DNA from: a virus
Taxonomy: Duplodnaviria; Caudoviricetes
Direction: 5' to 3' (one strand)
Virus record (IMG/VR): IMGVR_UViG_3300011908_000001
Coordinates: 1-64,000 of that record
Length of the DNA: 64,000 nt
Each line of letters starts with the position of its first letter. Position 1 is the stretch's first letter. Below are positions 10,758 through 14,215 of the stretch, one piece after another. A program made the position numbers and the translations under genes. The notes below the pieces were generated by a model. It saw nothing but the letters and a program-made list of their open reading frames with translations. It searched no databases and was not told the origin of the DNA.

Positions 10758-10958
10758 ATGGATTACTCACGGTGGCACATAGGCGACAAGGCGTTCTACC
10801 AAGGACAAACTTGTGCCAACACAGTAACTTATGGCGAGGAGTACGAGGTAATCCGTTTAGTAGAAGGAAAGCCTCGGCACGCCTTTATAAAAGATGACTC
10901 AGGGAATGACAAACTTATTCAAATGAGTTCATTATTCGTTAAGACTGGAGGTAAATAA
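10758..10958 (+). CDS. Hypothetical small beta-barrel-like protein
   Basis: RBS GGAGG; WHIGDKAFY...GEEYEV pattern. Confidence 0.65.
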   Translation: MDYSRWHIGDKAFYQGQTCANTVTYGEEYEVIRLVEGKPRHAFIKDDSGNDKLIQMSSLFVKTGGK

Positions 10959-10960
10959 CC

Positions 10961-11230
10961 ATGAGCAAGTATACATTAAGTATTGCACCCGACGACAAAA
11001 CACCTATTGAGACAGGTTTCGCTGATTTTTATAAACTGCCAGAGATTTTAGAAGAGTTCATCAAAGGATTTACAGGTGGCGAAAGCCCCTACCACAAAGT
11101 ATCTTTCATGTTAGAAGAAGTTGGCACTGGAAGGTCCCAACTAGTAGAAGCTTCTTATGAAGCATTGGAGAACATCCCTACCATTGGTGGAGAGGTAGTT
11201 CGACAATTAGTTAAAGGATTTACAAATTAG
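10961..11230 (+). CDS. Hypothetical protein
   Basis: RBS GGAGG. Confidence 0.65.
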   Translation: MSKYTLSIAPDDKTPIETGFADFYKLPEILEEFIKGFTGGESPYHKVSFMLEEVGTGRSQLVEASYEALENIPTIGGEVVRQLVKGFTN

Positions 11231-11243
11231 TTTTAAATACCAC

Positions 11244-11272
11244 TTGACAAATATCCACTAATGTGGTAATAT
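11244..11272 (+). promoter_or_regulatory. SigmaA-type promoter for the RNA cluster
   Basis: TTGACA-17 bp-TAATAT with TG extension; no CDS follows for ~760 nt. Confidence 0.8.
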
Positions 11273-11378
11273 AGTTTTATAAGGTACTACAAAGTGCTTT
11301 AAATATTAGCTCAATGTTATCTATGAATTATGTGACCAACAGGTTAGGGGGTGCGGAAACACCTCTTAACCACATTAC

Positions 11379-11477
11379 AGGGGAGTGGCGTGAGGGCATG
11401 CGCACCTGAGAAACCAGGGTCAGGTAATAATCAGCTGATAAAACTGACATATCGTAGGTTCGAATCCTACCTCCATC
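11379..11477 (+). ncRNA. tRNA-like element (non-canonical; anticodon not assignable)
   Basis: Perfect T arm GTAGG-TTCGAAT-CCTAC; D stem GCGT/ATGC; partial acceptor GGAG/CTCC; oversized anticodon-like arm ACCTGA-10 nt-TCAGGT; long variable arm. Confidence 0.55.
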
Positions 11478-11584
11478 TATACTTCCGTTAAGGAAGCTTT
11501 TGTAAAATCACCCCCCCCATGACTTCACAAAAAATAATCAAATATTTTTTCGAGATAAATGGTAGTAAATATATTAAATAAATC

Positions 11585-11985
11585 AGGGAGACTCTTTAAA
11601 CCGTAACGGACATTTCGGTTTAAACTTCTCCTTACATAATTCCTAGCGAAACGGGTGGAAGAGGCGTATTCCCGTTTAGTTGATCTTAGATTTACTAGGA
11701 CTTCAAGTTCGCAAGAAACTTAGGCAGACGTGTCCATCCTCTAAGTACAGGTCAGAGAGGTTTCCTCCTTATAGTTTTTCACATAGCACCGATTGCCCTT
11801 TAAAGGGGCTGACCTAAGCATTATCACCTGAATGCGTTCATAGTGGTAGCAACGTCGTTAAACTGCTCGGCTCTTCGGAGCCTACATAATTGTGAGTGAC
11901 CTGAATGGCTTTAGGTAAGGTCTCTGAAACGGTAGTATGAGCCACATACTTGACCCGAAGAGAGTGTTGACCACTTGGCTCTCTT
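11585..11985 (+). ncRNA. Series of unidentified structured RNA elements
   Basis: Stems TTTAAACCG/CGGTTTAAA, CCTAG/CTAGG, AAACGGG/CCCGTTT, C-GCAA-G tetraloop, GGCTC-TTCG-GAGCC, AGTATG-AGCCA-CATACT, AAGAGAG/CTCTCTT; units separated by TACATAATT at 11633 and 11883. Confidence 0.55.
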
Positions 11986-11994
11986 ACTTTAGAT

Positions 11995-12537
11995 AGGTTG
12001 TTAGTGTAGTAGGTAACATAGGCAGGAGGTTAGTTTTGAAAGAGTTTATGTATGGTTATTTAGTTAATGAAGACGGGGAGGTTTTCTCCACTAAGTATGG
12101 TAAGTTAAGAAAGTTAAAGGGCAGGAAAAATCAAAAAGGGTACCTTATGTATGTTTTGAGTTTCGAAGGTAAAACCCAAGACTTTTCAGCTCACCACTTA
12201 TCGTACTATGTAAATATTAGTCATTTCGACACCTCAGATGGTCTTCAAATAGATCACATAGATGGTAACAAGTTGAATAATAATTATTTAAATCTTAGGA
12301 GAGTAACACCTAAAGAGAATTACAATAACCCATCTACTAAGCCTGATAGTCGAGGAAATAAAAGTCCTAGATACTTAGAAATAGACATGGATGAATTAAA
12401 GGATCTTTTTATTTCAGGAGAGTCTATAAGGAGTATTTCGAAGCATTTCAAATGCTCAAGGCAAGTGGTAAATAGTAGACTTTCGAAGCTAAACCTATAA
12501 AAAAACGCCGACAGGGGTTCGAATCCTCTACGACCTG
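11995..12537 (+). tRNA. Split tRNA-like gene whose anticodon arm is occupied by an HNH gene
   Basis: 5' half: acceptor AGGTTGT (11995-12001), TA, D arm GTGT-AGTAGGTA-ACAT, A, GGC. 3' half: GCC, GAC, T arm AGGGG-TTCGAAT-CCTCT (12513-12529), acceptor ACGACCT (12530-12536), discriminator G. Confidence 0.7.
12036..12500 (+). CDS. HNH homing endonuclease with C-terminal HTH
   Basis: YLVNEDGEV N-terminus; SAHHL...QIDHIDGNKLNNNYLNLR HNH motif; SIRSISKHFKCSRQVV HTH; TTG start with RBS AGGAGG. Confidence 0.85.
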   Translation: MKEFMYGYLVNEDGEVFSTKYGKLRKLKGRKNQKGYLMYVLSFEGKTQDFSAHHLSYYVNISHFDTSDGLQIDHIDGNKLNNNYLNLRRVTPKENYNNPSTKPDSRGNKSPRYLEIDMDELKDLFISGESIRSISKHFKCSRQVVNSRLSKLNL

Positions 12538-12546
12538 TATAAGTTT

Positions 12547-12720
12547 TCGGCTACCGAGTGGTCGAGGCTTAGAGGGAGGGCGGTCTCCCTTAAATGAACA
12601 GCGCACGTAGGCTTCCATGTCGAAGCCCTTTGAACTCCCTGATAAAACGAGAGGTGCCTACCAGATCGTATGCGCACAGGGAGGATTAGTACGAGACTTT
12701 GGGCTCGCAGTCAGATAAGA
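12547..12720 (+). ncRNA. Unidentified pseudoknotted RNA
   Basis: Stems GCGCA/TGCGC, GTAGGC/GCCTAC, CCTTT/AGAGG whose loop CTCCCTG can pair with downstream CAGGGAG; extra hairpins AGGGAG/CTCCCT and CGAG/CTCG. Confidence 0.55.
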
Positions 12721-12735
12721 CAGAAAAATCAGCTG

Positions 12736-12801
12736 TAGGATTTGTAGTAGGTGCAGTCAGGTAAAGGCGCCTGATGGGGAGTTCGAATCTTCTCAGTCCT
12801 A
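12736..12801 (+). ncRNA. Short (66-nt) tRNA-like element
   Basis: 7-bp acceptor TAGGATT/AGTCCTA, mini D arm TGTA-GTAGG-TGCA, TCAGG/CCTGA arm with 8-nt loop, T arm GGGGAG-TTCGAAT-CTTCTC. Confidence 0.55.
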
Positions 12802-12810
12802 TTTTAATTA

Positions 12811-12884
12811 GTGGTAGTACCGAAGCGGTTTAACGGCTCGGATTGCAAACCCGATGTTCAGGGGTTCGAATCCCCTCTACCACT
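12811..12884 (+). tRNA. tRNA-Cys (GCA), CCA not encoded
   Basis: Acceptor GTGGTAG/CTACCAC, D stem CCG/CGG, anticodon loop TT-GCA-AA (A31.C39 mismatch), T arm AGGGG-TTCGAAT-CCCCT, discriminator U. Confidence 0.85.
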
Positions 12885-12947
12885 TAGGGCACACGCCCTT
12901 TCCATATGAGGTTTAAATTCCTCTTTCATATTTTTCCTCCCCTTTTA

Positions 12948-12985
12948 CCCATTACATCGGAAAGTGTAGTGGGGTTTTTTATTTT
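12948..12985 (+). terminator. Terminator closing the RNA cluster
   Basis: CCCATTACAT-CGGAAA-GTGTAGTGGG followed by a T run. Confidence 0.85.
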
Positions 12986-12989
12986 ATTG

Positions 12990-13019
12990 TTGACAAAGTA
13001 ACGGGAGGCATGGTATACT
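12990..13019 (+). promoter_or_regulatory. SigmaA-type promoter
   Basis: TTGACA-18 bp-TATACT with TG extension. Confidence 0.7.
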
Positions 13020-13048
13020 CATCTTATAAATCATTAGGAGGAGATAGT

Positions 13049-13252
13049 ATGGTTCTAGTAAGTGCGCTTGATACCAGCGATGGCACATATAAGGATGCAC
13101 ACATTAACGCATTCCAAGTAATCTTTAGCAAGGAAATAGGCGGAGGATACTTCTGGGTTGACTGCGTAGGGGGTCAAAGAATCCGCTGTGTAGGAAGTTA
13201 CAAGGTTTTCATATCTCGCATGAATGTAGTTTTAAAAGGTGGTAGCAAGTAG
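13049..13252 (+). CDS. Hypothetical protein (start reassigned to 13049)
   Basis: RBS AGGAGG at ~13036-13041. Confidence 0.65.
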   Translation: MVLVSALDTSDGTYKDAHINAFQVIFSKEIGGGYFWVDCVGGQRIRCVGSYKVFISRMNVVLKGGSK

Positions 13253-14215
13253 ATGATAGAGAATATTAACATAGGCAGAGACATTGTCATTCAGATTGAC
13301 ATTGCGGAATACCTTGAGCGTTTTGAATGGGAGCAAGCACGATGGCGTGATGATCGTCTAGTAGCCCGTTCACCATTCCGTGATGACAACTCTCCATCAT
13401 TCTTTGTTAACTTTAACAATGAGTGGTCAGGAAGTTGGGGTGATAGTGGTACTGGTCAGACAGGTAATTTAGTATCTCTTACAGCAGAGCTTTTTGGAAT
13501 AACCTATGAAGAGGCGTGGGAACAGCTTCGTGACGAGTATTTTGTTAAGCCCTATGAAGTGCCAGACATTTCCATCCAGTTGAAGCAACCTCAAGTACCT
13601 ACTACCTTCGATTTACCTAAGTGGTGTCCTTCGCCTTACTTAGGAGGTCGTGGTATCAGCGAGGTAACTCAGCTTGATTATATGGTGAATGAAGCAGATG
13701 GTCAAATAAACCTTCCATACATCGACGGAAGTGGCTTGGTACGGGCGTTGAAACACCGTAGTGTAGAGGCTAAAGACTTCTGGTATCAGGCTGGTACACA
13801 CTCTATTAATGACCTACTGTTCGGTTACCATTTAGTATACGAGAAGAAGCCTACCACAATCTTTATTTGTGAGGCGGAGATAGATGCTATGAGTGCCTAT
13901 GAGATGGGATACGTTGGAGTTTCTACAGGTTCAGCCCACATGTCAGACAAGCAAGTTGAACTGCTTATTAAAACGGGCGTTACCAACGTGGTAATTGCAA
14001 TGGATAATGACATGGCGGGTAATAAGGCTTCTGAGACTATCTTAAATAAGCTTTCCGAAAAGGACACATTTGATATCTACCGTGTAATCCTTCCAGAAGG
14101 CGGAGACCTTAATGACCTATTGCAAAAGATTAAAGGAACACCTAAAAGAGTTAAGATGAAAGAGTTGACAAAGGCGGGTAACCTTCACAAAAAGATTTGG
14201 TTTAGAGGTATTTAA
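13253..14215 (+). CDS. DNA primase (TOPRIM)
   Basis: SPFRDDNSPSF N-terminal domain; ICEAEIDAMS and AMDND TOPRIM motifs; GGDLND. Confidence 0.9.
   Translation: MIENINIGRDIVIQIDIAEYLERFEWEQARWRDDRLVARSPFRDDNSPSFFVNFNNEWSGSWGDSGTGQTGNLVSLTAELFGITYEEAWEQLRDEYFVKPYEVPDISIQLKQPQVPTTFDLPKWCPSPYLGGRGISEVTQLDYMVNEADGQINLPYIDGSGLVRALKHRSVEAKDFWYQAGTHSINDLLFGYHLVYEKKPTTIFICEAEIDAMSAYEMGYVGVSTGSAHMSDKQVELLIKTGVTNVVIAMDNDMAGNKASETILNKLSEKDTFDIYRVILPEGGDLNDLLQKIKGTPKRVKMKELTKAGNLHKKIWFRGI

Follow-up and report, generated by a model that had tools for sequence, protein, structure and literature searches.

A probable HNH homing cassette in place of the anticodon arm of phage tRNA genes

To our knowledge, homing endonuclease genes (HEGs) are thought to persist only in self-splicing introns, inteins or intergenic DNA. 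The HNH nicking homing endonucleases I-HmuI, I-HmuII and I-BasI of the Bacillus phages SPO1, SP82 and Bastille are of the first kind: they are encoded in self-splicing group I introns within the gene for DNA polymerase, so that at the RNA level the host gene is made whole again. The locus that we describe here resembles this group in its HNH_3 domain, its C-terminal helix-turn-helix, its phage-borne location and its presence/absence polymorphism, but it contains no intron, its target is a tRNA gene, and the anticodon arm of that gene is lost. HEG-bearing group I introns also occur in the anticodon loops of bacterial tRNA genes, as in cyanobacterial tRNA-fMet with I-Ssp6803I and in tRNA-Leu(UAA), where a mobile endonuclease gene likewise sits at the anticodon position. 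Those introns self-splice and leave the anticodon loop intact, whereas the present module has no ribozyme and the arm is replaced. A parallel of another kind is offered by hidden start sites, such as the ribosome-binding-site hairpins of T4 intron-encoded endonuclease mRNAs and the long-range pairing over the start of the maturation gene of phage MS2. In our module the Shine-Dalgarno sequence and the start codon are similarly predicted to be paired, an arrangement that would hold down the output of a nuclease that may do harm; unlike in T4 and MS2, the pairing partner lies within the ORF itself, in its last six codons, and the helix would stack on a tRNA body where the anticodon stem would otherwise stand.

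Two phage systems come closer in setting. SegB of phage T4 is a free-standing GIY-YIG homing endonuclease encoded between phage tRNA genes (PMC2330249), and homing endonucleases in phage tRNA gene clusters are described in a further source (PMC13096335). As with SegB, which drives preferential inheritance of its region with the tRNA genes as dispensable cargo, we are dealing with a homing endonuclease in a phage tRNA region. Here, however, the gene is of the HNH type and does not lie between tRNA genes: the two halves of a single tRNA gene, with its acceptor, D and T arms, enclose the ORF, together with a conserved closing helix. The nearest published oddity is the set of 'enigmatic' tRNA introns of the Lak megaphages, one of which perhaps itself encodes a tRNA (Devoto et al. 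2019; PMC6784885). Both cases involve phage tRNA genes with non-ribozyme inserts, and one type of the cassettes reported below nests an intact tRNA-Cys in an outer tRNA-like gene; the outer gene in Lak phages, however, is a complete tRNA interrupted in its loop, whereas here it has no anticodon arm. In full-text literature searches we found no description of an HNH gene that replaces a tRNA anticodon arm.

The tRNA body and the HNH gene

The module occupies positions 11995–12537 of the window, by which we mean the whole 64,000-nt stretch of a Caudoviricetes virus that was analysed (IMG/VR record IMGVR_UViG_3300011908_000001). Its parts are as follows.

11995–12001, + strand: 5′ strand of the acceptor stem, AGGTTGT (sequence reading, fold and family pairing count)
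12004–12019, + strand: D arm, with stem GTGT/ACAT (12004–07/12016–19) and loop AGTAGGTA, which includes GG (sequence and fold)
12021–12023, + strand: 5′ strand of the basal stem, GGC, supplied by the cassette at the place of the anticodon stem (fold and covariation)
12024–12029, + strand: Shine-Dalgarno sequence AGGAGG, 6 nt 5′ of the TTG start (sequence)
12036–12500, + strand: HNH homing endonuclease ORF of 154 aa, I-HmuI-like with a C-terminal helix-turn-helix, with its TTG start at 12036 and its stop codon at 12498–12500 (Pfam, profile and dN/dS)
12507–12509, + strand: 3′ strand of the basal stem, GCC (fold)
12510–12529, + strand: variable loop GAC and T arm AGGGG-TTCGAAT-CCTCT (12513–29) (sequence and fold)
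12530–12537, + strand: 3′ strand of the acceptor stem, ACGACCT (12530–12536), and discriminator G73 (12537), with CCA not encoded

The two acceptor strands, AGGTTGT and ACGACCT, form six Watson–Crick pairs and one G·U pair, and U8–A9 are present between the acceptor 5′ strand and the D stem. When a mini-construct of the two halves was folded in silico, the cloverleaf was the minimum-free-energy structure. Acceptor stem, D arm, T arm and discriminator of a tRNA are all in place, and the first-pass annotation, which had read a tRNA cloverleaf around the ORF from its acceptor, D arm, T arm and GGC/GCC, was right on each of these elements, as it was in placing a 154-aa HNH ORF with an AGGAGG ribosome-binding site and a TTG start between the halves. 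Both halves, including the D arm, are homologous to an intact tRNA-Trp of phage EH802P1, and A1–U72 and G73 match tRNA-Trp, for which A1 is typical in bacteria.

What does not exist in the module is an anticodon stem-loop of the kind found in a decoding tRNA: the sequences at the window's two junctions cannot be combined into a 5-bp stem with a 7-nt loop. ARAGORN did not call the module a tRNA with or without the intron option, and in intron mode (introns of 100–1200 nt) it saw only a tRNA-Cys, placed at 12810–12885, and nothing at the module. Rfam at E ≤ 10 over 10900–13300 likewise returned no tRNA, intron or ribozyme match over the module. Both programs miss it as a tRNA because the anticodon arm is missing.

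The ORF matches PF13392 (HNH_3) with 35 bits against a cut-off of 24.8 (E = 1.1e-8), in agreement with the precomputed Pfam assignment of its homologues, and a profile of 18 homologues matches I-HmuI (PDB 1U3E) over residues 2–103 with E = 5.4e-18. The catalytic D-H...N...N columns, D73, H74, N81/N82, N86 and others, are invariant in these 18 homologues, and dN/dS between family members is 0.21. By these measures the ORF is an intact HNH_3 gene under purifying selection, live and not a relic.

A conventional self-splicing group I or group II intron that carries the HNH ORF would accord with the normal residence of I-HmuI-type HNH ORFs in group I introns, and group I introns are known from bacterial tRNA anticodon loops. 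Against it stand the Rfam search just described, which over 10900–13300 gave no intron or ribozyme match at E ≤ 10, and the geometry of the insert. Only 12 nt separate the basal stem from the start codon and 6 nt the stop codon from the basal stem, and because this is all the sequence outside the ORF, there is no room for a catalytic core; moreover, the anticodon itself is absent. We give this explanation next to no credence, in line with the earlier remark that no group I or II intron core was visible.

Alleles with and without the cassette

The first-pass annotation had proposed to look for an uninterrupted allele in related phages, and one was found. Enterococcus phage EH802P1 (L002) carries an intact tRNA-Trp(CCA) at the site where its close relative EH93P1 (L001) has the module, with 490 nt of EH93P1 (2069–2558) standing opposite 21 nt of EH802P1 (2073–2093). 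The surrounding DNA aligns in BLAST up to these very borders, L001 1319–2068 with L002 1325–2072 at 95.6% and L001 2559–2869 with L002 2094–2405 at 94.2%. The first 24 nt of the intact tRNA-Trp equal the EH93P1 half except at position 1 (A versus T), its last 28 nt are identical to the EH93P1 half, and the flanks are the same. The difference at position 1 leaves a T1·T72 mismatch in EH93P1, shared by L196, at the place of A1–U72 in the intact allele, a hint of relaxed constraint. A second pair of states exists at tRNA-Cys sites: in L392 and L454 the tRNA-Cys(GCA) is intact, its acceptor being GCCCCTA/TAGGGGC, and L090 (231-aa HNH) and L096 (152-aa HNH) have a cassette with the same upstream flank and acceptor stem. 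Intact alleles thus exist for both tRNA-Trp and tRNA-Cys, and a refuting condition named by the first-pass annotation, the lack of any intact homologous tRNA, does not hold.

The 21 nt of EH802P1 that are missing in the cassette allele comprise the anticodon stem-loop and most of the variable loop. The comparison indicates that the cassette replaces the whole anticodon arm and does not merely interrupt its loop. With the whole stem-loop replaced, the anticodon too is gone, and a decoding tRNA cannot be rebuilt. Two apparent junctions were considered and rejected: a clean insertion after the anticodon in the Cys type (TTGCAA, then ATG), where the HEG-minus allele shows replacement of the arm, and the 3′ junction in EH93P1, where a loop resembling that of tRNA-Val(UAC) can be read but, being conserved neither in the window nor in L004, was put down to coincidence.

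These alleles bear directly on another idea of the first-pass annotation, a protein-spliced tRNA intron re-ligated by the phage Rnl2; cellular or phage nucleases would cut out the insert, and joining of the halves would restore a working tRNA. An Rnl2-type ligase gene does lie 2 kb downstream of the module, and the tRNA body is intact. However, the HEG-minus allele shows a 21-nt anticodon stem-loop replaced and not interrupted, a 7-nt loop closed by 5 bp cannot be made from the junctions, and at the module ARAGORN is empty in intron mode. Furthermore, EH802P1 and 9181, both HEG-minus, have the ligase gene in the same position, and because these cassette-free relatives have it, the ligase is not tied to the module. 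Re-ligation into a decoding tRNA is therefore a very improbable account, and we abandon it.

Presence/absence polymorphism of this kind, found at both tRNA-Trp and tRNA-Cys sites (EH93P1 versus EH802P1; L090 and L096 versus L392 and L454), is the signature of homing and points to recent mobility; it strongly supports the earlier suggestion that a homing endonuclease invades tRNA genes at the site of the anticodon. The HNH proteins of the window and EH93P1 are 68% identical and the neighbouring primases 69%, and because the two divergences are equal, the cassette may have been resident in this phage lineage for long. We conclude with high confidence that at this locus an HNH homing cassette of about 490 nt has taken the place of the anticodon stem-loop of a phage tRNA-Trp gene. 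The cassette consists of a short basal stem strand, the Shine-Dalgarno sequence, the I-HmuI-like HNH ORF and the complementary stem strand.

More than 100 homologues of the HNH protein were found in metagenomes, and every close relative with readable flanks was located among tRNA genes. A single-protein search of viral contigs found nothing, and an alignment-based search of viral contigs returned mostly distant HNH_3 genes, which were used as negative controls; 16-mer pattern scans of viral contigs gave matches that were nearly all chance, with only L262 and L312 carrying the family. At least 14 distinct elements have a closed tRNA bracket, 12 of them with perfect 7/7 acceptor pairing. Type A (the window, EH93P1, L196, L004 and L197) has the tRNA-Trp features A1–U72, G73 and D arm GTGT-AGTGGTA-ACAC. 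Type B (L005, L006, L007, L086, L088, L090, L091, L096, L312 and L348) has the tRNA-Cys features U73 and, mostly, D arm TA-GCC-AAGTGG-AA-GGC, the D arms of L006, L007 and L088 being different; one type B subgroup also retains the TTGCAA loop of tRNA-Cys. In type B an intact tRNA-Cys lies directly 3′ of the ORF, within the outer bracket, and the stop codon of the ORF falls inside this inner tRNA-Cys, with an overlap of 10–23 nt. A closed bracket is absent from the group of L089, L092 and L093 and from L095, L354 and L200, and is still there around a decayed HNH copy in L094. When the flanks of 12 elements were joined at 15 offset combinations, ARAGORN found no tRNA.

The tRNA bracket around the HNH ORF is far beyond chance, because none of the 152 distant HNH_3 loci is bracketed (a T-arm motif lies downstream in 1/152) and because 165 of the 168 acceptor and T-stem positions in the 14 distinct elements are paired, compared with 114 ± 6 and a maximum of 139 in 2000 trials with permuted 3′ halves. 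Each acceptor position is represented by three to five different pair types among these elements. All pairs were counted by scripts, as a whole-element MAFFT alignment misplaces the D loop and the helix bulges.

A bracket beyond chance could still be a neutral leftover of selfish insertion, in which the cassette killed the tRNA gene, the halves are the flanks of the target and the helices have no function. The halves would then look intact because the cassette keeps homing into fresh alleles. Indeed, acceptor and T-arm pairing could persist through repeated homing into fresh intact alleles and not through selection at the RNA level. HEG-plus and HEG-minus alleles in near-identical phages, a sign of recent mobility, suit this account, as do the T1·T72 mismatch in EH93P1 and L196 and the bracket that still surrounds the decayed copy in L094. 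Set against it are the 165/168 paired positions, kept although the HNH proteins across bracketed lineages are only about 50% identical, and the slow change of the bracket itself. Between L004 and L197, 6 of 53 bracket sites differ, with compensatory changes in the acceptor and T stems, and dS of the ORFs is 0.93, so that change in the bracket is about eight times slower than at synonymous sites.

The basal stem and the start–end helix

Inside the tRNA halves, the ends of the cassette can pair with each other. Beyond the basal stem, the strands concerned are these.

12027–12042, + strand: 5′ strand of the start–end helix, comprising the second half of the Shine-Dalgarno sequence, the spacer, the TTG and the first codon
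12480–12496, + strand: 3′ strand of the start–end helix, comprising the last six codons of the ORF

The predicted helix has about 16 bp, including two G·U pairs, and one bulge. The first-pass annotation had proposed that GTTTT over the start pairs with AAAAC after the stop and extends the anticodon stem; that pairing is possible, but a far better helix is formed by 12027–12042 with 12480–12496. The predicted junction runs from GGC/GCC through an asymmetric 3-nt/10-nt internal loop into the 16-bp helix. An archaeal-type bulge-helix-bulge (BHB) intron was considered for this junction and rejected, as it is without two 3-nt bulges flanking a 4-bp helix.

The start–end duplex of the window has a ΔG of −21.9, compared with −12.8 ± 2.9 for shuffles (6 of 1000 reach it) and −13.8 ± 3.7 for sliding windows (2.8% match it). 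In EH93P1 the duplex reaches −24.7 against −11.1 ± 3.1 for sliding windows, none of which attains this value. Six differences separate the helix of the window from that of EH93P1, three in the leader and three synonymous codon changes, and 15–16 bp form in both; the changes include a double change from G–C to A–T and a compensated 1-nt indel. The basal stem varies in the same manner, with GGC/GCC in the window and ACGC/GCGT in EH93P1, including an exchange of G–C for C–G, and with TCA/TGA in L004 and TTGG/CTGA in L197. Covariation in the start–end helix comes from two or three lineages only, and in the AT-rich L004 and L197 the duplex is no better than shuffles. In the comparison with EH93P1 the basal stem and the start–end helix are both conserved through compensatory changes, and they are features of the cassette and not of its target.

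In type B, helices of 9–16 bp with unrelated sequence occupy the same position. L090 has ATCAAGG/CCTTGAT; L091 has 10 bp, from which the L088 version differs by three changes, all to G·U; L096 has 15/16 bp and L348 has 9 bp. The Shine-Dalgarno sequence is paired inside the helix in the 167-aa group (AGAGG/CCTCT), and in the 231-aa and 152-aa groups it pairs with the 3′ part of the inner tRNA-Cys.

These helices weigh on the neutral leftover reading from both sides. The weak duplex in L004 and L197 is what functionless helices would give. However, the basal stem and the start–end helix belong to the cassette and not to the target, and they covary; and the Cys-type cassettes place 9–16 bp helices of unrelated sequence at the same position. 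Together with the slow change of the bracket, this leads us to regard a neutral leftover as rather unlikely, even though it is the most serious of the competing accounts. The first-pass annotation had also raised an mRNA in a tRNA scaffold, matured by RNase P and RNase Z and translationally controlled; this fits the covarying scaffold and helix, and it is plausible and partly supported at the level of sequence comparison.

Operon context and a proposed tRNA-shaped mRNA

The module lies in a 1.7-kb RNA operon that is almost free of ORFs and has one promoter and one terminator, with the following elements around the module.

11244–11272, + strand: strong promoter-like site at the head of the operon, TTGACA, 17-nt spacer and TAATAT, TG-extended
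11379–11478: tRNA-like element with a long insert (Rfam tRNA, weak at 20 bits)
12737–12800: truncated tRNA-like element
about 12811–12884, + strand: canonical tRNA-Cys(GCA) (ARAGORN and Rfam)
12948–12983, + strand: intrinsic-terminator-like hairpin and T run at the operon end

No promoter comparable to the 11244 site was found directly upstream of the HNH ORF. CCA is encoded in none of the tRNA-like elements, the module and the tRNA-Cys; in Firmicutes, RNase Z naturally acts on precursors that lack CCA.

This setting admits one more explanation, in which the tRNA-shaped module, in a slot that holds ordinary tRNAs in relatives, is a spacer: RNase P and RNase Z would excise it from a larger, ornate non-coding RNA, and the flanks of that RNA would remain paired or be joined by Rnl2. 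Pairing is indeed possible between the flanks of the module (GACCACT at 11969–75 with AGTGGTC at 12558–64), and in 9181 CTTGGG/CCCAAG and GGCGGA/TCCGCC close the corresponding slot. The relatives share conserved long non-coding stretches and all have the Rnl2 ligase, and RNase P and RNase Z leave the 3′-OH and 5′-phosphate ends that Rnl2 joins. On the other hand, the flank pairings are short and the joined flanks make no tRNA. Nor is there a match to any known large-RNA family: at E ≤ 10, neither the window nor the HEG-minus relative 9181 gave a group I or II intron, ribozyme, GOLLD or ROOL hit in Rfam. We consider an excised spacer improbable.

We return to the homing cassette, for which the following course of events can be proposed. 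The HNH enzyme would cut or nick intact tRNA alleles of co-infecting phages, and recombination would copy the cassette in. The phage would simply have lost that tRNA-Trp, which is not restored, and the Cys-type cassettes would supply a spare tRNA-Cys. The module would be transcribed as part of the 1.7-kb RNA operon and, since acceptor stem, T arm and D/T-loop elbow all still form, would be expected to be excised by RNase P and RNase Z like its tRNA neighbours, leaving operon processing undisturbed. After excision the ends of the mRNA would be tucked into the helix, and with the start site locked by pairing with the end of the ORF, little HNH protein would be made, for instance from nascent transcripts whose 3′ strand has yet to be synthesised. 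In type B a second brake may exist: since the stop codon of the ORF sits inside the inner tRNA-Cys, the HNH mRNA would be left without a stop codon once RNase P has matured that tRNA.

This full model, which combines the homing cassette with an RNA-level function of the tRNA scaffold and the helix, is the one that we favour, as probable and with clearly less assurance than the cassette itself. More tentatively, and a little short of calling it probable, we suggest that these loci may represent a new kind of RNA. A widespread family of HNH cassettes would exchange the anticodon arm of tRNA-Trp or tRNA-Cys for a helix-closed mRNA, with the tRNA body kept under selection; RNase P and RNase Z would release a tRNA-shaped mRNA whose start is locked to its stop region; and the Cys-type cassettes would in addition bring a substitute tRNA, the maturation of which would strip the nuclease mRNA of its stop codon.

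For HEGs, the module looks like a third way of persisting, in which a dispensable phage tRNA gene has its anticodon arm overwritten. The cassette keeps the tRNA processing signals and appears to restrain its own translation by start–end pairing, and its tRNA-Cys variants bring a spare copy of the gene they destroy. It also explains why tRNA finders miss such loci and why orphan 'DNA endonuclease' annotations occur in the non-coding gaps of phages. It points to tRNA genes as homing targets common to unrelated phages, and a cultured pair for experiments is at hand in the Enterococcus hirae phages EH93P1, with the cassette, and EH802P1, without it. If the scaffold is functional, the module would be a natural protein-coding RNA that is processed and stabilised as a tRNA.

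The RNA operon and its tRNA-like elements

In the window, positions 11244-12985 form a 1.7-kb RNA operon that is almost without ORFs and is bounded by a strong promoter-like site at one end and a terminator at the other. Long stretches of it are kept in the Enterococcus phages EH93P1, EH802P1 and 9181 at about 73% identity. None of these conserved stretches matched an Rfam family at E <= 10, which excludes GOLLD and ROOL. Besides the cassette-bearing tRNA-Trp gene and an intact tRNA-Cys, the operon carries two further tRNA-like elements and a partial tRNA-Cys copy, listed below.

tRNA-like elements and partial tRNA-Cys copy within the operon
11379-11478, tRNA-like element; Rfam tRNA model, 20.2 bits, E = 0.62
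11843-11872, partial copy of the tRNA-Cys 5' half; GTGGTAG, a D-arm-like segment, then GCTCGG
12737-12800, truncated tRNA-like element of 64 nt; acceptor-like pairing AGGATTT/CAGTCCT and T arm GGGAG-TTCGAAT-CTTCT

The first has a 10-nt loop at the anticodon position, and its perfect T arm is preceded by an additional segment of about 25 nt. The relatives share this element, and EFP01 and phiSHEF13, both large Enterococcus phages, retain part of it. The 64-nt element lies immediately 5' of tRNA-Cys and was also marked by the terminator scan, because a T run follows it. The 5'-half copy precedes the intact tRNA-Cys (12811) by about 970 nt; it resembles the 5'-half duplications that adjoin HNH genes in the related loci L089, L092 and L093.

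The flanks of the slot that holds the cassette-bearing gene can themselves pair, GACCACT (11969-11975) with AGTGGTC (12558-12564). In phage 9181, where the slot contains tRNA-Trp and tRNA-Arg, the flanks at about 1715-1735 and 1935-1950 can likewise pair, as CTTGGG/CCCAAG and GGCGGA/TCCGCC. A larger RNA may enclose the slot, with these pairings as the covarying helix that closes it.

Occupied and intact tRNA genes, and a decayed cassette

A single tRNA-Cys gene is occupied in related phages by two HNH subfamilies, of 231 aa (L090) and 152 aa (L096); the two cassettes share flanks and acceptor, and the gene is still intact in other relatives (L392 and L454). A decayed family member is found at L094 (1855-2514), with a frameshifted HNH ORF and a mismatch in the SD helix; its tRNA bracket remains perfect (7/7 acceptor).

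More phage tRNA genes with inserts at the anticodon position, their D arms Gln- or Cys-like, were found in seven loci (L366, L372, L449, L397, L398, L423 and L431). The inserts start at about 25 nt and exceed 70 nt in the longer cases, some continuing beyond the 110 nt of sequence read, and ARAGORN called no tRNA at any of the seven interrupted genes. Interrupted tRNAs seem common in gut-virome contigs. The phage contig L004 carries a tmRNA gene (214-559) within a tRNA array and, just upstream of its HNH module, an orphan T arm and acceptor 3' strand (2405-2440) with no visible 5' partner.

Overlap of the HNH ORF with the inner tRNA-Cys

In the Cys-type cassettes, whose tRNA-Cys-like outer gene encloses an intact inner tRNA-Cys, the final 10-23 nt of the HNH ORF, stop codon included, lie within the inner tRNA.

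Overlap of the HNH ORF and the inner tRNA-Cys
L005, 2995-3004
L086, 2494-2516
L096, 2437-2459

With the ORF end and stop codon so placed, tRNA maturation and translation of the complete HNH protein would be mutually exclusive on any one transcript.
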